Of a stretch of 64,000 nucleotides of DNA, positions 37,675 to 46,834 are shown piece after piece. This stretch comes from Candidatus Sysuiplasma jiujiangense. Lineage in GTDB: Archaea > Thermoplasmatota > Thermoplasmata > Sysuiplasmatales > Sysuiplasmataceae. Position 1 is the stretch's first letter, and every line of letters starts with the position of its first letter. A program made the position numbers and the translations under genes. The notes beneath the pieces are model-generated. The model was not told where the DNA came from. It saw only the letters and a list, made by a program, of their open reading frames with translations, and searched no databases. The DNA lies in NCBI GenBank assembly GCA_019721075.1, contig JAHEAD010000001.1, positions 186,001 through 250,000 on the forward strand. The letters run 5' to 3'.

Positions 37675-38100
37675 TCAGGCTTCATTCTCCACAGTCTCAT
37701 TAACGAATTTTGCAGCATCTTCGGAGAGGCGCCAGGAACGTACTCCTGCTATGCTGCCGAGCATGACACTGACTATAAGGTATGAATAAGAAGGCCACGC
37801 ATTTTTCCTGTCAAATTCCGACGGAACAGCCGGATGATCCGGATGTGAATGGTAATAGCCGAGAATACTGAGACCTTTTGCATTTGCGTCCCTTTCGCAT
37901 TTCATAATCTCCGCCGGATCTATTACATACCTGGTTTTCCGTGAATTATGCGATGAGTTTTTTGCCGGAAGAGTTGCAGAAATTATTCTGTCCTGATCCC
38001 CTCTGCCTAAAAGGAACCCGCAGCACTCCTCGGGATATGTCTGGACCGCATGTGCATATACCTCTTCCAGAAGATTTTGCCTGATGCGGAGCGTCATCAT
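37675..38100 (-). CDS. mec: JAB/MPN+ metalloprotease (Mec/CysO-cysteine peptidase family)
   Basis: PEECCGFLLG and YHSHPDHPAVPSEFD give an intact E...HxH-x7-S-x2-D JAMM motif. Confidence 0.92.
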   Translation of the reverse strand: MMTLRIRQNLLEEVYAHAVQTYPEECCGFLLGRGDQDRIISATLPAKNSSHNSRKTRYVIDPAEIMKCERDANAKGLSILGYYHSHPDHPAVPSEFDRKNAWPSYSYLIVSVMLGSIAGVRSWRLSEDAAKFVNETVENEA

Positions 38101-38129: not shown

Positions 38130-39362
38130 TCATGCAAAAACTTTTCTGACCGTGTCGAGTGCTTCTGCAAGGGCGTCTATGTCTTTCCTGCCATTGTAAA
38201 GATAGAATGATGCACGGGAGGCAGAAGATATATTGAGCCTGTCCATCAGCGGCTGAGCGCAGTGATGGCCGGAGCGGATGGATACCCCCTGTCTGCCAAG
38301 TATCTCTGCTGTGTCATGACCATGAATGCCATTGATGTTGAACGCTATGACACCGCTCCTCTCCTCGACATCCTTCGGACCGTAAATTTCGATGTCGTTT
38401 CTTTCAGAGAGTCTAGACAGCGCATAAGAAAGCAACAGTTTGTCGTATTTCTCCACATTTTCCATTCCAATGGAGTTGAGATAGTCCACTGCGGCACCGA
38501 GCCCGACGGCACCGCTGATATTAGGGGTTCCGGCCTCAAACTTATATGGCGGGACATTCCAGCTGCAGCTGTTCTGATGTACTTCGCTTATCATTTCACC
38601 TCCGCCAAAGGCTGGTTCAATTGCCCTGAGATGCTCCGACTTCCCGTATAGGGCGCCAATCCCGGTTGGTGCGAGCATTTTATGACCGGACAGCGCAAAA
38701 AAATCACAGTCCAGTTTTTCTACATCCACTGGCATGTGAGGTGCAGACTGCGCTCCGTCTACAATAAGTAAAGAGGAATTATCATGAGCGAGATCGGCTA
38801 TTTCTCTGACAGGATTCACGGTTCCGAGAACATTCGATACCTGTGCAACCGAGACTACTTTCGTCCTATCTGTGAGCTTTGCCCTGAAATCCTCCATATC
38901 AAGGCGCCCCTCACTGTCAATATCCGCGAACTTCAGCCTTATTCCCCTCCATGCGAGCATCTGCCATGGCACAACGTTTGAATGATGCTCCATGACGGTC
39001 GTGAGGACTTCATCACCCGGCTTGAGTTTCCATATGCCAAGACTCAATGCCAGTACGTTTATCGCTTCAGTCGTTCCACGAAGAAAGATTATTTCATCAG
39101 GAGAGCCTGCATGGAGGAAGCCGGCAACCTTGCCTCTTGCATTTTCATAGAACTCAGTCGCTTCTTCCCCGAGCGGATAAATTCCCCTATGGACATTCGC
39201 ATTATGCATTCTTTCGAATGAACTTACCGCATCTATCACCTGAAATGGCCTCTGGCTCGTTGCGGCACTGTCCAGGTAGATGAGCTTCTCCCTTCTTTCG
39301 GAGAATATAGGAAAATCACCAATCAGAGGGGACACGTCTCCAAGTGTTTCCGGGAGCTTCAT
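38130..39362 (-). CDS. sufS: Cysteine desulfurase, group II
   Basis: YLDSAATSQ, SGHKM (PLP Lys), FEAGTP and RSGHHCA motifs. Confidence 0.96.
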   Translation of the reverse strand: MKLPETLGDVSPLIGDFPIFSERREKLIYLDSAATSQRPFQVIDAVSSFERMHNANVHRGIYPLGEEATEFYENARGKVAGFLHAGSPDEIIFLRGTTEAINVLALSLGIWKLKPGDEVLTTVMEHHSNVVPWQMLAWRGIRLKFADIDSEGRLDMEDFRAKLTDRTKVVSVAQVSNVLGTVNPVREIADLAHDNSSLLIVDGAQSAPHMPVDVEKLDCDFFALSGHKMLAPTGIGALYGKSEHLRAIEPAFGGGEMISEVHQNSCSWNVPPYKFEAGTPNISGAVGLGAAVDYLNSIGMENVEKYDKLLLSYALSRLSERNDIEIYGPKDVEERSGVIAFNINGIHGHDTAEILGRQGVSIRSGHHCAQPLMDRLNISSASRASFYLYNGRKDIDALAEALDTVRKVFA

Positions 39363-39371
39363 GATAAAGCC

Positions 39372-39677
39372 TCAAACTTCAACATAGATATACCCGTCTT
39401 CAATCTTGACATTATATTTTTTCAGCGGCTCCGTCGCAGGAGGACTTTCCACTGCCCCTGTTTCCAGATTGAAGCGAGACAGGTGAAGCGGGCATACAAC
39501 TGCGTTGCCCATAAGTATACCCCTTGACAGGTCTGCATCCTCATGTGTGCAGGTAGCATCCAGAGCATGATAATTGTCCCCCAGACGAATTATCATTATA
39601 TCGTTGCCGTCAAGCTCTACCTTCATTATCTTCGCCGAATCCATATCCTTTAAAGAGAGAGTGCGCTTAAACGGCAT
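39372..39677 (-). CDS. Rieske [2Fe-2S] ferredoxin
   Basis: CTH...CPLH Rieske ligand motifs. Confidence 0.92.
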   Translation of the reverse strand: MPFKRTLSLKDMDSAKIMKVELDGNDIMIIRLGDNYHALDATCTHEDADLSRGILMGNAVVCPLHLSRFNLETGAVESPPATEPLKKYNVKIEDGYIYVEV

Positions 39678-41112: not shown

Positions 41113-42519
41113 TCACCCGACTGATCCCGTCATCTCAAGCTGTATTAGCCTGTTGAGCTCAACAGCATATTCCATCGGTAGCTCCTTTGAAAACACATCG
41201 AGGAATCCCATGACAATCATATTAAGCGCATCTGCTTCGCTCAGCCCCCTTGACATGAGATAGAAGAGTTGCTCTTCGCTGATCTTTCCGACGGTTGCTT
41301 CATGTGTTGTCGAAGCCGTCTCCTCATTGATGGTGTTGTACGGGTAGGTATCTGTCCTGGACTTCTCATCAAGCAGGAGTGCATCGCATCTTACGCTGCT
41401 CTTTGCATTTGTAGAGCCCTTCTCTATATGAAGGAGACCGCGGTAGGTTGTTCTTCCTCCGTCCTTGCTGACGCTCTTAGATGTTATTCTTGAAGTTGTC
41501 TCAGGTGCAAAATGCAGTATCTTCGCGCCCGCATCCTGGTGCTGATCCCTGCCTGCAAATGCGACTGATATCACTTCCCCCTTGGCCCTCGGGCCGAGAA
41601 GGTAGACAGACGGATATTTCATCGTAAGTTTTGACCCGAGGTTACCGTCAATCCATTCCACGGTGGCATCCTCATGTGCGAATGCCCTCTTTGTCACCAG
41701 ATTATATACGTTGTTGGACCAGTTCTGTATCGTTGTGTAGCGTACATAGGCACCCTTCTTTGCTATGATCTCCACAACTGCAGAATGCAGCGAGTCCTTG
41801 GAATATACAGGCGCAGTGCATCCCTCTATGTAGTGCACCCGGCTGTTCTTCTCCGCAATAATGAGCGTTCTTTCAAACTGACCGACGCTCTTCGCGTTTA
41901 TCCTGAAATATGCCTGCAGCGGTATATCAACTTCCACTCCTTCAGGGACATATATGAAACTGCCTCCACTCCAGACTGCGCTGTTCAGCGCTGCAAATTT
42001 ATTATCCTCAGGCGGTATTATCGTTCCGAAATGTTCTCTGAATATTTCCGGGTATTCCCTGAGTCCTTCGTCCGTGCCCAGAAAAATGACGCCCTTCTTG
42101 CTTAAATCCTCCCTGATCTTGTGATAGACGACTTCGCTGTCATATTGAGCGCCGACGCCGCCAAGAAACTTCTTTTCAGCTTCGGGTATTCCCAGCTTGT
42201 CGAATGTCCTCTTCACATAGTCGGGCACGTCGTCCCAGCTGTCACTGTTCTTCCCTGACGGTGCCATGTAGTAGTAGATGTCGTTGAAATCAATCTCCTT
42301 TAGATCCTCGCCCCAGGGGGGTAGCGGTTTCTTGTAGAAAATGTCAAGAGATCTGAGCCTGAAATTTTTCATCCATTCAGGTTCCTTTTTAAATCTGGAG
42401 ATGGCCTCCACTACCTCTCTGTTAAGGCCCTTCTGCGTCTGAAATACGTACTTTGCGTCCTCATCATGGAAGCCGTATCTGCTGTAGTCACGATCCATTC
42501 CCTGTTCATTTATTACCAT
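41113..42519 (-). CDS. sufB: Fe-S cluster assembly protein SufB
   Basis: [33 protein letters not shown] and HEATV motifs. Confidence 0.97.
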
Positions 42520-42568
42520 TTTATCTCTTCTCCTCAGCATTCATCGTCACACAATTGAAACAGTGATC

Positions 42569-43990
42569 CTAATAACGCGGCATCGCAGGGTCCACCTTCT
42601 CCGCCCATGCGTTAATCCCTCCCTTCAAGTTCTTTACCTTTCGGAACCCTATATCCTTCATGAAGTTCAGTGCATATGCACTTCTCTGCCCCACCTTGCA
42701 GTACAGAACAATCTCATCGGCCGTGCTAAGCTCGCTGACCCTTGTGGGTATATCGTTGAGTGGAATCAGTCTAGACCCTTCGATGCGGCATATCTCCCAT
42801 TCCTGCGGCTCCCTGACATCGACAAGCACAATATGCTCTCCTTCCCTCATCCTTCTGCTCAGCTCTTCGGGGGAAATACTGTCCTGCTCGTTCTGTTCGT
42901 CGTGCCTAATACCGCAGAATTGTTCATAATCGATGAGTTCTCTGATGGTCGGATTTTCGCCGCACACGGGGCAGCCTGGATTTTTTCTGAGCTTGAGCTC
43001 CTTGAAGCGCATCTTCATTGCGTCGAACAGGAGAAGCCGGCCAATGAGAGGTTCCCCTTCACCCAGTATGAGTTTTATTGCCTCCATGGCTTGGAGTGTC
43101 CCGATGGTCCCCGGAAGGACGCCGACAACTCCGCCTTCTGCGCATGACGGAACGAGACCCGGGGGCGGTGGACTTTCGTAAAGGCACCTGTAGCAAGGCC
43201 CCTGCTTTGCATCAAAAACAGATACCTGCCCCTCAAACCTGTAAATTGAACCGTATACATTTGGCTTTCCCAGCAGAACACATGCGTCATTTACGAGATA
43301 GCGGGTTGGAAAATTATCGGTTCCATCAATAACGATGTCGTATTTGCCTATTATGTCTATGGCATTCAGTGAATTAAGCTGAACCTCATGCTTCACAACT
43401 TTAATGCCTGGGTTTATTCCCTTGATCTTCTCTTCGGCAGAGTCAATCTTCTTTCTTCCGACGTCCTTCTGGGAATGAATAATCTGCCTCTGCAGATTGC
43501 TGAAATCAACCGTGTCGAAATCCACTATTCCCAGTGTTCCGACGCCGGCCGCAGCGAGATAAAGCAGCAGCGGGGAACCCAAGCCGCCAGCTCCTATAAC
43601 AAGAACCTTAGCCCGTTTCAGTTTTAGCTGACCTTCGAGTCCTACTTCCGGCAGAAGCAGGTGTCTGCTGTATCGCTGTATATCTTCATATGTAAATTCG
43701 CTCGCCACGCTGCTCGAGCCGCCCGCGATCGAGGGGATTATTGAAACGATGTCTCCTTCCTTGACGGACGTCCTGCCTCTTTCCAGATAACGTATGTCCT
43801 CTTCATTGAGATACACGTTGACGAAATTCCGCATCTTTCCGTTTTCGTCAAAAATGTGATGCCTGAGCTGCGGGCTAGATCCTGCCAGCTTCTGCAGCAC
43901 TTCATCAACATTTGACCCCTCGACCTCCACTGATTCGGAGTTTCCGACGTACTGCCTGAGCGGTGTTGGTATCATTACCCTGACTTTCAT
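42569..43990 (-). CDS. Three-domain fusion: MoaD/CysO/SAMP-type ubiquitin-like domain (91 aa, ends IAGG), MoeB/E1 adenylyltransferase and rhodanese
   Basis: The beta-grasp domain MKVRVMIPTPLRQY...VNVYLNEEDIR...IIPSIAGG continues in frame into RYSRHLLL, GAGGLG, SNLQRQ, CYRC, PSCAEGG, CPVC and rhodanese YCKVGQRS. ATG 43990 overlaps the cysM stop (ATGA). Confidence 0.93.
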   Translation of the reverse strand: MKVRVMIPTPLRQYVGNSESVEVEGSNVDEVLQKLAGSSPQLRHHIFDENGKMRNFVNVYLNEEDIRYLERGRTSVKEGDIVSIIPSIAGGSSSVASEFTYEDIQRYSRHLLLPEVGLEGQLKLKRAKVLVIGAGGLGSPLLLYLAAAGVGTLGIVDFDTVDFSNLQRQIIHSQKDVGRKKIDSAEEKIKGINPGIKVVKHEVQLNSLNAIDIIGKYDIVIDGTDNFPTRYLVNDACVLLGKPNVYGSIYRFEGQVSVFDAKQGPCYRCLYESPPPPGLVPSCAEGGVVGVLPGTIGTLQAMEAIKLILGEGEPLIGRLLLFDAMKMRFKELKLRKNPGCPVCGENPTIRELIDYEQFCGIRHDEQNEQDSISPEELSRRMREGEHIVLVDVREPQEWEICRIEGSRLIPLNDIPTRVSELSTADEIVLYCKVGQRSAYALNFMKDIGFRKVKNLKGGINAWAEKVDPAMPRY

Positions 43991-44919
43991 AAACTCGCCT
44001 CCCAGAATCTCTCGGCCAGATAGCGCTGACCGCTGTCGGGAAAGATTGTAACAATGCTGCTCGGCCCTTCCCTCTCGGACAGTTCCATGCATGCCTTAAG
44101 GACGGCTCCGGAACTGACACCAATCAGGAGTCCTTCCTTCCTTGCTGCCTCAATAACTGTTTTCTGCGCGTCTTCTGTTCTGACGAAAATATGCTCGTCT
44201 GCAAGTCTTTCATCATAAATACCCGGTTTAATCGACGAGTCCATTCTCTTCAGACCCTCTATTCCATGGAGAGGGCTGTCCGGTTCCACCGCTATTGTCT
44301 TTACACCAGGGATGCGCTCTTTGAGAATCCTGCTCGTTCCGGTAAAGGTGCCTCCGGTTCCCAAGCCAGCGACAAAATAATCGACATGCCCTCCTGTCTG
44401 CCTGATTATTTCCTGCCCTGTACCCCTGTAATGTGCAAGCCAGTTGTTCCTGTTGTTATACTGGTCTGCATAATAATAGAGTTCGGGATTTTCTGAATAC
44501 ATCTTTTTCGCAAGCCGCTGAGCCCCATCCGTTCCTTCCATTGGATCGCTGAGTATCACCTCGGATCCGTATGCTCTCAGCATTTCAAGTTTTTCCTTGC
44601 CGACATTTCCCGGGACTACAATGGCTGACCTGAATCCCCTGACAGCACATATCATCGAGTATGCGATGCCTGTATTGCCTGACGAAGCGTCAAGGAGAAT
44701 CTTTTCCTCCGTCAGGCTGCCGCTCTTCACAGCGTCCTCAATGATAGCGCATGCTGCCCTGTCCTTCACGCTGCCTCCCGGATTGAACCATTCTGCCTTT
44801 GCAAAAACGCTTGTAGCGCTTGAACCTGAAAACATTCGTTCAAGCTTTATAAGGGGAGTATTTCCGATTCTGGAAAGAATGTTTTCGCCGTATTCCAGTC
44901 TGAGATCGTTGCATATCAT
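43987..44919 (-). CDS. cysM: PLP-dependent cysteine synthase (CysM/O-phosphoserine sulfhydrylase-like)
   Basis: IGNTPL, NPGGSVKDR, SSGNTG, GLGTGGT and FPDSGQRYL motifs. ATG 44919 overlaps the sufU stop. Confidence 0.9.
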   Translation of the reverse strand: MICNDLRLEYGENILSRIGNTPLIKLERMFSGSSATSVFAKAEWFNPGGSVKDRAACAIIEDAVKSGSLTEEKILLDASSGNTGIAYSMICAVRGFRSAIVVPGNVGKEKLEMLRAYGSEVILSDPMEGTDGAQRLAKKMYSENPELYYYADQYNNRNNWLAHYRGTGQEIIRQTGGHVDYFVAGLGTGGTFTGTSRILKERIPGVKTIAVEPDSPLHGIEGLKRMDSSIKPGIYDERLADEHIFVRTEDAQKTVIEAARKEGLLIGVSSGAVLKACMELSEREGPSSIVTIFPDSGQRYLAERFWEASL

Positions 44920-45299
44920 TGCTGCGCACCTACCCGTGTGGCTATGGCTTCCTGCAGTGTCTTGAGAGACAGTGTCGCGCACTTCATTCTGACAGCGCTC
45001 AGCGGAATGTGAAGCATCTCCCTGACAAATTCAGGGGACATCCTACCGACATCCTCAAGGCTCATCCCCTTAACATGGTCCGTAAGCATTGATGCGGATG
45101 CCTGGCTTATCGCACACCCTCTGCCGTCGAATGCAATATCACTGATAGCACCGTTCTCCACCTTGACATAAATAGTGATATCGTCCCCGCAAACCGGATT
45201 ATTGCCATGGCTGAACAAGTCCGGCTTTTCTATCTGCTTCTTGTTGTGGGGGCTCTTGTAATGTTCAATTATCTCTTCCTGGTAAATGTCAAATGCCAT
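44916..45299 (-). CDS. sufU: SufU/IscU-type sulfur-transfer or scaffold protein
   Basis: NPVCGD, GCAISQASAS and RMKCA; three conserved Cys. Confidence 0.92.
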   Translation of the reverse strand: MAFDIYQEEIIEHYKSPHNKKQIEKPDLFSHGNNPVCGDDITIYVKVENGAISDIAFDGRGCAISQASASMLTDHVKGMSLEDVGRMSPEFVREMLHIPLSAVRMKCATLSLKTLQEAIATRVGAQQ

Positions 45300-45312: not shown

Positions 45313-46068
45313 TCAGTTGGTTATTTCCGGTTCTTTGAGCCAGTCATAACCCTTTTCCTCAAGTTCCTTTGCAAGTTCTTTCCCGCCGCTCTTGACGACG
45401 CGACCGTCAACAACCACATGCACGAAATCCGGCGTTATGTACTGAAGGAGGCGCTGGTAATGGGTAACGAGTATCAGACCGATGTCCGGTCCTGCCATTG
45501 AATTGATTGCCGATGCAACAATCCTGAGTGAATCGATGTCCAGCCCGCTGTCCGTCTCATCGAGTATGCCAAACTTTGGCTGTAGGATTGCCATCTGCAG
45601 AACCTCAGCCCTCTTTTTTTCTCCTCCGGAGAAACCCTCATTTAGCGACCTGCCGATGAAGTTTTCGTCAATGCCTAGCTGATTTACCTTCTCTTTGAGA
45701 AGTCTGAAGAATTTTGTCGGACTCAGCGGATTTGCAGGATGAGCACTGTTATAAGCTATCCTCAGAAAATTACCCAGGCGTACGCCGGGGACCTCTACTG
45801 GGTACTGAAAACCCAGAAAAAGTCCAGCCCTTGCCCTCTTGTCCGATGTCATCGCCAGGATGTCCTGCCCATCGAGCAAAATCTGACCGCCGGCAATCTG
45901 ATACTTAGGGTGACCCATCAGGGCATAGCTCATCGTACTTTTGCCGGAGCCGTTAGGGCCCATTATTGCATGTATCTCTCCCTGCCTGACAGTAAGATTT
46001 ATTCCCTTGAGTATCTGTTTTCCTTCTATGTTTACCTTCAGTTCCCTGATTTCGAGTTCCGATGTCAT
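45313..46068 (-). CDS. sufC: Fe-S cluster assembly ATPase SufC
   Basis: GPNGSGKST, FQYPVEVPGV, NEGFSGGEKKR and LDETDSGLD motifs. Confidence 0.97.
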   Translation of the reverse strand: MTSELEIRELKVNIEGKQILKGINLTVRQGEIHAIMGPNGSGKSTMSYALMGHPKYQIAGGQILLDGQDILAMTSDKRARAGLFLGFQYPVEVPGVRLGNFLRIAYNSAHPANPLSPTKFFRLLKEKVNQLGIDENFIGRSLNEGFSGGEKKRAEVLQMAILQPKFGILDETDSGLDIDSLRIVASAINSMAGPDIGLILVTHYQRLLQYITPDFVHVVVDGRVVKSGGKELAKELEEKGYDWLKEPEITN

Positions 46069-46201: not shown

Positions 46202-46834
46202 ATGGACAATGATATATCCCTTCTTGGCGAATCAAAAACAAAGATTATCACTCTACTTGGTGCAGGTGAGCGGTCAGGGCAGGAGCTGGCAAGGCAGCTT
46301 AATATCAACACGACAGCTGTGAGGGAGCACATCGATGTCCTTGAGAGAATGGGGCTGGTTACCTCAAAGTTCGTCAATCTTGGTGTCGGCAGGCCCAGAA
46401 AAATATACAGCCTGACAACTTCCGGAATCGAACTGCTGCCCAAGCACTATGATATTCTCCTCAATCTTCTCATCAAGAAAATCCATGAGAAAGGAGGCGA
46501 CATCCTTTTGAGCCAGCTTATATCGGACGTTGTCAGGGAGTTCAAAGACAGTGTTGAAAGTACTGATTTATTGACGACAGAAATGCGCATAAAGAGCGTT
46601 GTTTCATTTCTGAACAAACTTGGGTTCATGGCTACGGTAGAGAAGGACGGTGACAAGATCTTTGTCGTCAGGCACAACTGCATTTTCAATAAGACAGCGA
46701 AACTTTATTCCGGTGTGCTGTGCAACGAGTGTGACAGTTCCTTTGTCAAGGAACCGATAGGACCGGCAGAGGTTGAGCTGATTTCCTGTATCGGAAAGGG
46801 GGACACTTCCTGCAAGAATCTTATCAAATCGTAA
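46202..46834 (+). CDS. SufR-like wHTH transcriptional regulator with a Cys-rich C-terminal domain
   Basis: ELARQLNINTTAVREHI...GRPRKIYSLT...LPKHY, then HNC, CNEC and C-x6-C. Divergent from sufC. Confidence 0.85.
   Translation: MDNDISLLGESKTKIITLLGAGERSGQELARQLNINTTAVREHIDVLERMGLVTSKFVNLGVGRPRKIYSLTTSGIELLPKHYDILLNLLIKKIHEKGGDILLSQLISDVVREFKDSVESTDLLTTEMRIKSVVSFLNKLGFMATVEKDGDKIFVVRHNCIFNKTAKLYSGVLCNECDSSFVKEPIGPAEVELISCIGKGDTSCKNLIKS

Follow-up and report, generated by a model that had tools for sequence, protein, structure and literature searches.

The CysO/CysM/Mec+/MoeZR pathway of Mycobacterium tuberculosis, a cysteine-making pathway whose original description is reportedly that of Burns et al. 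in 2005, resembles a gene cluster that we analysed in Candidatus Sysuiplasma jiujiangense, an archaeon from mine waters. The cluster lies in a 64,000-nucleotide (nt) stretch of contig JAHEAD010000001.1 (positions 186,001 to 250,000; hereafter the window, to which all positions without a contig name refer), and one of its genes encodes in a single chain a ubiquitin-like domain (Ubl) of the sulfur-carrier type, an E1-like activating enzyme and a rhodanese. Both systems comprise a carrier of the ThiS/MoaD fold with a diglycine (GG) motif, an E1 with a rhodanese, a CysM-type pyridoxal phosphate (PLP) enzyme and a JAMM protease. Unlike in M. tuberculosis, where CysO is a separate chain of 93 amino acids (aa), the carrier is here the N-terminus of its own E1, and the cluster sits inside an archaeal SUF operon with a CysM-like enzyme that is no closer to the CysM of M. 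tuberculosis than to other cysteine synthases. We take moeZ to be unlinked in M. tuberculosis. The available part of PMC3227635 describes the roles of the four mycobacterial proteins, including the need for a free C-terminal Gly in the adenylation and thiocarboxylation of ThiS/MoaD/CysO carriers and the hydrolysis by Mec+ of the CysO-cysteine adduct, a GG-X peptide bond; it also gives the presence of both CxxC pairs, which the archaeal E1 keeps, as a feature of the MoeBR type.

The operon type itself has been described. Row 4c of Table 1 in Iyer, Burroughs & Aravind 2006 lists ThiS/MoaD, E1-rhodanese, JAB and cysteine synthase together, which is the gene set found here, and the same paper proposes that JAB enzymes cleave fused ThiS/MoaD proteins to free their C-terminus (PMC1779556, available part). 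In that part of the paper the carrier of type 4c is listed as a separate protein, and no fusion to the E1-rhodanese, archaeal example or link to SUF is mentioned. The novelty claimed in an earlier annotation made from the DNA letters alone (the sequence-only reading) is therefore overstated. Linear fusions cut after an internal GG are also on record: the DR0402 JAMM of Deinococcus radiodurans cleaves the MoaD-MoaE fusion DR2607 and HvJAMM1 of Haloferax volcanii cleaves linear SAMP1 fusions (both as cited in the available part of PMC8832034), and MoaX of M. tuberculosis is cut at Gly82/Ser83, a cleavage required for its activity (PMC4326299, available part). For shorter extensions, namely those of QbsE (a CF tail, QbsD) and CxnE (a decapeptide, CxnF), removal by JAMM enzymes is proposed in the available part of PMC5925218. 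Our own proposal, to which we give a probability of about 0.7, is that the archaeal fusion is the precursor of a CysO-like carrier joined to its own E1-rhodanese, working in a cysteine pathway of the CysO/CysM/Mec+ type within the SUF operon.

The fusion gene is one open frame on the minus strand, running from an ATG at 43990 to a stop codon at 42569-42571 and encoding 473 aa. It comprises the following parts.

43718..43990, minus strand: Ubl (ThiS/MoaD, CysO-like), residues 1-91, ending IIPSIAGG; Pfam ThiS and alignment with CysO
43694..43717, minus strand: linker SSSVASEF, residues 92-99, with the putative cleavage site G91/S92; variable among homologues
42965..43672, minus strand: E1-like adenylyltransferase of the MoeB/MoeZ/Uba4 type; Pfam ThiF, residues 107-342
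42599..42874, minus strand: C-terminal rhodanese with the active-site loop C431-K-V-G-Q-R; Pfam Rhodanese, residues 373-464

The longest possible open reading frame begins at 44092, but ATG 43990 is the likely start on sequence grounds because the homologues begin within a few residues of MKVRV and because this ATG shares the tetranucleotide ATGA with the stop of the cysM-like gene upstream. The two Gly codons (43718-43723) continue in frame, with no stop between, into the eight residues of the linker and then the E1, so that the GG is internal in the translated product and a free Ubl C-terminus would require cleavage. The sequence-only reading had described this layout correctly in every detail. 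An internal GTG at V95, considered as the start of a separate E1, was rejected, since it would leave the Ubl still blocked.

Pfam recognised the three domains in this order, ThiS at residues 5-91 (2.8e-13), ThiF at 107-342 (5.9e-85) and Rhodanese at 373-464 (4.6e-21). The E1 carries the motifs GxGxxG and DGTDNF, two CxxC pairs (C266/C269 and C340/C343) and C283, and the rhodanese C431, G434 and R436 are invariant in the alignment of homologues; the E1 of CysO-type pathways likewise has a C-terminal rhodanese with an active-site Cys. Among the NCBIfam models, MoeZ (521 bits vs a cut-off of 647) and MoeB (527 vs 633) matched with E-values of 1e-156 to 1e-158, and the equivalog cut-offs were likewise not reached for SAMP1 (52.9 vs 60 bits), UbaA (356.4 vs 450) and desampylase (89.7 vs 130). 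Residues 1-91 aligned end to end with the CysO of M. tuberculosis (3dwg_C, 1-93 of 93, E 1.8e-13) and with the ThiS/MoaD carrier 4n6e_B, which places the GG of the fusion at their C-terminus. Residue 98 aligned with residue 3 of Escherichia coli MoeB (1jw9_B, E 3.9e-62), leaving a linker of only about 6-8 residues between the GG and the E1 fold. In an AlphaFold2 model built from 71 sequences (mean predicted local distance difference test score, pLDDT, 85.1; predicted template modelling score 0.66), the junction at residues 88-93 was the only stretch with a predicted pLDDT below 50, and the modelled E1 superposed on 1jw9_B in Foldseek with a template modelling score of 0.94 and a root-mean-square deviation of 1.8 Å.

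A lost stop codon or an assembly error, which the sequence-only reading had wanted excluded through reads and homologues, is ruled out. The same three Pfam domains were found in all 120 best database homologues (61-99% identity), whose named sources include Thermoplasmata, Methanomassiliicoccales, Acidobacteria, Armatimonadota and Bryobacteraceae, and the GG was kept in each of them, 119 by a scripted motif and one, P0092, with PAIAGG and a variant E1 motif. Among 31 related genomes, the gene was present in 9/9 members of the same family, eight times at full length without stops (74-85% identity) and once split across two contig ends, and in both members of a second family (57-58% identity). 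The stretch 43400-44100 was also present in 20 public runs of 6 studies of mine drainage, tailings and sediment. Contigs from three runs of three other studies spanned it in one piece without any indel, two of the three being flagged as possibly the source of this DNA; their sole differences were A>G at 43582 and 43682, both read as synonymous.

To place the fusion among its relatives, we scanned one genome per species, which gave at least 602 related stretches, and searched the best 80 of them by tblastn with the window proteins. Since it was E1 motifs that identified these loci, the tail counts given below are independent of the tail. The fused form was found in 40 loci and a split form, in which the Ubl is a separate gene just upstream of the E1, in 36, with four loci lacking a Ubl. 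Both JAB and CysM genes accompanied 37 of the fused loci (JAB only in one, neither in two) and 26 of the split ones (JAB only in three, neither in seven), the commonest order being CysM-JAB-Ubl(-)E1-rhodanese. The motif [SA][IV]AGG was retained in 76/76 Ubl-bearing loci. Only 2 of the 36 split carriers ended exactly at the GG; the other 34 had tails of 1-27 residues such as GGL, GGD, GGAA, GGMY and GG...RCICR. A separate search for short Ubl relatives, made with residues 1-100 and thus with nine post-GG residues that may slightly favour tailed hits, yielded none ending at the GG among the 120 best hits, 100 of which had tails of 1-30 aa and 20 longer ones, mostly fusion fragments. Judging from these sequences, a blocked carrier C-terminus is the rule in the clade and the fusion is its extreme.

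At the junction, G90 and G91 were invariant in 71/71 sequences, conservation collapsed right after them and resumed at the N-terminal helix of the E1, and the linker varied in both sequence and length, the distance from the GG to the RYSRH motif being 11-29 residues among homologues. A conserved GG at the boundary between a Ubl and its partner, followed by a variable linker, is what would be expected of a JAMM-processed linear precursor of the MoaX/DR2607 type. The fusion resembles MoaX and DR2607 in having an internal-GG Ubl upstream of a partner of the same pathway, and Ser directly follows the GG in MoaX as it does in 98/119 fused homologues; the partner of the MoaD-MoaE fusions is by contrast the sulfur-using MoaE of the molybdopterin pathway, whereas it is here the activating E1 of a cysteine pathway. 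As with QbsE and CxnE, the carrier would be made with residues past the GG and need a JAMM maturase, and most of the unfused orthologues look the same, but the tails in those systems are 1-10 residues long and what follows the GG here is a two-domain enzyme of 382 residues. The HcyS-Ala carrier of Wolinella, with HcyD, is said to be another tailed carrier with a JAMM enzyme.

In a quick maximum-likelihood tree of the E1-rhodaneses (81 rows), fused and split forms interleaved, with 15 state changes of which at least 7 were forced by well-supported branches. The sequence-only reading had supposed that the fusion fixes a 1:1 stoichiometry between carrier and E1, and this part of it is not supported: the two forms swap repeatedly, and nearly all split carriers are blocked as well, which speaks for a relaxed constraint on the position of the stop codon rather than for a selected stoichiometry.

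Three further observations concern these relatives. The archaeal E1-rhodaneses were 62-65% identical to bacterial ones, and the quick tree, unrooted and with weak support on this point, put them among the bacteria at two distinct positions; this suggests that the cluster was transferred between domains. One homologue of 182 aa (P0121) has a second Ubl-like domain directly after the GG, forming a tandem di-Ubl like a mini polyubiquitin. Finally, several unfused acidobacterial carriers (L043, L062, L069, P0143, P0155, P0156, P0158 and P0192) bear a Cys-x-Cys tail, RCICR or RCICS, after the GG; such conservation would not be expected of a neutral tail, so that this one might bind metal or mark the precursor.

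The fusion belongs to a run of nine genes on the same strand, separated by gaps of at most 29 nt or overlapping, in the order SufC-SufU-CysM-fusion-SufB-SufD-Rieske-SufS-JAB. The eight other genes and a divergent neighbour are as follows.

45313..46068, minus strand: SufC ATPase, first gene of the operon; NCBIfam TIGR01978, 342 bits
44916..45299, minus strand: iron-sulfur scaffold or sulfur-transfer protein of the SufU/NifU-N type; TIGR01994, 121 bits, above the cut-off, and Pfam NifU_N
43987..44982, minus strand: CysM-like PLP cysteine synthase; Pfam PALP
41113..42540, minus strand: SufB, beginning 28 nt downstream of the fusion stop; NCBIfam TIGR01980, 710.7 bits
39685..41088, minus strand: SufD; NCBIfam TIGR01981, 233.7 bits, above the cut-off
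39372..39677, minus strand: Rieske [2Fe-2S] protein; Pfam Rieske, 2e-16
38130..39362, minus strand: SufS cysteine desulfurase; NCBIfam TIGR01979, 546 bits, above the cut-off
37675..38100, minus strand: JAB/JAMM metalloprotease (Mec+/desampylase-like), last gene of the operon and putative maturase; Pfam Prok-JAB, 1.9e-26
46202..46834, plus strand: helix-turn-helix (ArsR-like) regulator with MetOD1, divergent and upstream of the operon; Pfam HTH_5, HTH_11 and MetOD1

From its position, the divergent protein is a possible regulator of the operon. Linkage to SUF genes was seen in four of the 80 surveyed loci besides the window, three from Thermoplasmata (L007, L030 and L053) and one cyanobacterial (L023).

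The JAB enzyme has a complete JAMM motif, with E25, H84-S85-H86, S94 and D97 invariant in an alignment of 48 orthologues. An orthologue adjoins the Ubl/E1 genes in 67/76 Ubl-bearing loci, being placed directly upstream of them in most related loci including the three from Thermoplasmata, and one was present in all 40 genomes with the fused form, in 38 of them within the locus. In the remaining two, whose loci have neither JAB nor CysM nearby (one of these loci being cut off 144 nt upstream of the gene), the orthologue lies elsewhere in the genome (144 and 102 bits). Since Mec+ already cuts a GG-X bond, the JAB of the operon is the natural candidate for the maturase, and removing a tail or a whole E1 would be the same reaction. 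The sequence-only reading had proposed that this JAB releases the Ubl and also hydrolyses the Ubl-Cys product. Comparison agrees well with both roles, through the invariant GG, the intact JAMM motif, the occurrence of JAB in all fused-form genomes and the MoaD-MoaE precedent; cleavage of the fusion by the operon JAB is well supported by such comparison, from which the cut itself is deduced.

The CysM-like gene, which overlaps the fusion, has a homologue in 63/76 Ubl-bearing loci, so that a cysteine synthase is linked to the carrier as in the CysO pathway. It scored 312-323 bits with the cysM/cysKM models of NCBIfam, under their cut-offs. It is the single strong cysteine-synthase gene of the genome (311.8 bits, next best 78.4), and the search for a CysE serine acetyltransferase in this 97%-complete genome gave a best score of 19.8 bits against a cut-off of 210.65.

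These elements can be joined into a cycle. As the carrier needs a free C-terminal Gly, the translated fusion would become a carrier only through a cut after G91. The operon JAB would make this cut, freeing a Ubl with a C-terminal GG; the freed E1 would then adenylate the terminal Gly, and a persulfide on Cys431 of the rhodanese would turn it into a thiocarboxylate. CysM would pass the sulfur to an activated serine, probably O-phosphoserine because no CysE was found, and thereby form Ubl-Cys, and hydrolysis of the GG-Cys bond by the same JAB would set cysteine free and return the Ubl to the cycle. This last step needs a GG-X peptidase at each turnover, so that taking off anything encoded after the GG would cost nothing more. 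Where the stop codon falls would then be weakly constrained in the clade, which would account for the tails on nearly all unfused orthologues and for the repeated fusion with, and separation from, an E1 gene that is invariably located just downstream. The fusion would thus be a tolerated, possibly convenient, extreme of the blocked carrier state and not a stoichiometry device.

Several points weigh against the proposal that the fusion is such a precursor. We infer cleavage, thiocarboxylate formation and cysteine formation alike from sequence facts, and the same goes for the identity of the protease, the use of the thiocarboxylate by CysM, the O-phosphoserine substrate and the sulfur donor. The CysM-like enzyme is nearer to the solved "cysteine synthase B" 2bhs_A (3.2e-64) than to the CysM of M. 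tuberculosis (3dwg_A, 6.3e-48), so that it is the gene context that points to its use of a protein thiocarboxylate. A cysteine desulfurase, SufS, is encoded in the same operon, and a persulfide derived from cysteine would make the pathway a futile loop. The JAB gene is not adjacent to the fusion but 5 kb from it, as the last of the operon, and two further JAB-family genes occur in the genome. In the metatranscriptome run X20, contigs covered 43400-43588 and 43731-43980 but none crossed the junction, which is neutral as to a single transcript or processing. To these can be added the slight bias of the short-Ubl query noted above and the tree, which was a quick version and not the product of a careful search.

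Other explanations start from the same facts. The fusion might never be cleaved, the Ubl staying on the E1 for good, in a structural or regulatory role, while another, free Ubl serves as the real carrier. Such an arrangement has been proposed for the Campylobacter-type Ubl-ThiF fusions, which also have a beta-grasp domain N-terminal to an E1-like enzyme: there a standalone ThiS co-occurs with the fused ThiF, the Ubl is distinct from ThiS and a different role was inferred for it (PMC1779556, available part). The genome studied here does have three solo ThiS/MoaD genes, two of them ending exactly in GG, but the fused Ubl itself matches ThiS/CysO and keeps its GG in every one of the 120 homologues. 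The operon, which consists of SUF genes, cysM and JAB, has no solo Ubl, and on contig C1, of which the window is a part, nothing but the fusion matched ThiS, contrary to what is found in thiamine operons with Ubl-ThiF. The nearest solo paralogue is only 33% identical to the fused Ubl, against 58-66% for unfused orthologues elsewhere, and the three solo carriers adjoin a propeller protein, a ThrC-like gene or MoaE. As the repeated switching between fused and split forms is also hard to reconcile with a permanent domain, we consider this explanation improbable. We think it similarly improbable that the fusion is cut after the GG by an agent other than the operon JAB, be it another JAB, a different protease or self-cleavage. 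The distance of the JAB gene from the fusion and the presence of three JAB-family genes leave some room for this, and the mycobacterial protease that cleaves MoaX was still unidentified in the available part of PMC4326299. No self-cleavage motif was evident in the fusion, however, the two other JABs, one of which is part of an E1-E2-JAB operon, reached only about 30 bits with Prok-JAB, and orthologues of the operon JAB directly precede the Ubl/E1 genes at most of the related loci.

The fusion could alternatively be adaptive, either by imposing a 1:1 ratio of carrier to E1 or by keeping the E1 or the Ubl inactive until its release by JAB, an enzyme that might respond to metal or redox state, so that the supply of cysteine is coupled to iron-sulfur assembly. 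It is indeed kept throughout the archaeal family and in many bacterial lineages, and the SUF setting recurs in the four loci mentioned above. Yet close relatives alternate between the fused and the split form, the split form is equally widespread (36 loci vs 40) with no sign of a strong selective difference, and it is not obvious why a carrier going through many cycles per E1 should need a 1:1 ratio, which makes us doubt this explanation as much as the previous two. A bolder view, unlikely but marginally less so than these three, would hold that the carriers of the whole CysO-like clade are practically never synthesised with a free GG, and would have JAB as an obligatory maturase as well as turnover enzyme and the Ubl-E1 as a zymogen in which the N-terminal helix of the E1 and the tail of the Ubl are locked until the cut. 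Because JAB is a metalloenzyme, metal or redox state would in that case control cysteine synthesis and tie it to SUF iron-sulfur assembly, and the fusion would be a prokaryotic counterpart of ubiquitin-fusion precursors that arose many times independently.

The sequence-only reading had also suggested that the freed Ubl could act as a SAMP-like protein modifier. The scores with the SAMP1 and UbaA models lie below the cut-offs, as given above, and there is less need for this idea because the genome has its own E1-E2-JAB operon, outside the window (contig C34, 247-2289, minus strand), which encodes an E1-like ThiF of 268 aa, a ubiquitin-conjugating E2 that matches Pfam UQ_con at 6.5e-12 and carries an FHPNI...C motif, and a JAB/MPN protein of 180 aa. 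In sequence this trio resembles an E1-E2-deubiquitinase operon of eukaryote type, here encoded by a member of the Thermoplasmata. The three solo carriers have surroundings of their own. One, of 95 aa and ending PSVAGG, is encoded beside a 369-aa BNR/Asp-box propeller protein (contig C2, 383-1785, minus strand). Another, of 92 aa and ending PAVSGG, lies immediately downstream of a 465-aa PLP enzyme (contig C45, 1498-3173, minus strand) that is threonine-synthase-like and has a Cys-rich N-terminal stretch; we presume that this pair may form a second thiocarboxylate-dependent amino-acid pathway, of the homocysteine/methionine type. The third, a MoaD-like gene overlapping MoaE (contig C23, 1459-2171, plus strand), ends PPVSGGL, one residue beyond the GG, so that in this genome trimming would be required for the molybdopterin carrier too.

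In a full-text literature search we found no description of a GG-retaining ThiS/MoaD carrier fused to an E1-rhodanese, or of near-universal tails on such carriers, although the E1-superfamily survey of Burroughs, Iyer & Aravind 2009 may cover the fusion; PMC13325395 makes no mention of fusions. The fused arrangement is genuine and occurs widely, and it adds to a known route to cysteine without being a system of a new kind. As the chemistry, this type of operon and the proposal of cleavage had all been published before, the step forward is an incremental one. If JAB does mature the precursor, the fusion would provide a clean natural substrate for the study of how prokaryotic JAMM enzymes recognise Ubl tails, and would explain why JAB genes travel with sulfur-carrier operons. 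Blocked C-termini also matter for annotation and for pathway reconstitution, as a carrier expressed as annotated and without its protease would be inert. For the archaeal family itself, which apparently has no CysE, our results suggest that it depends on this route for its cysteine.

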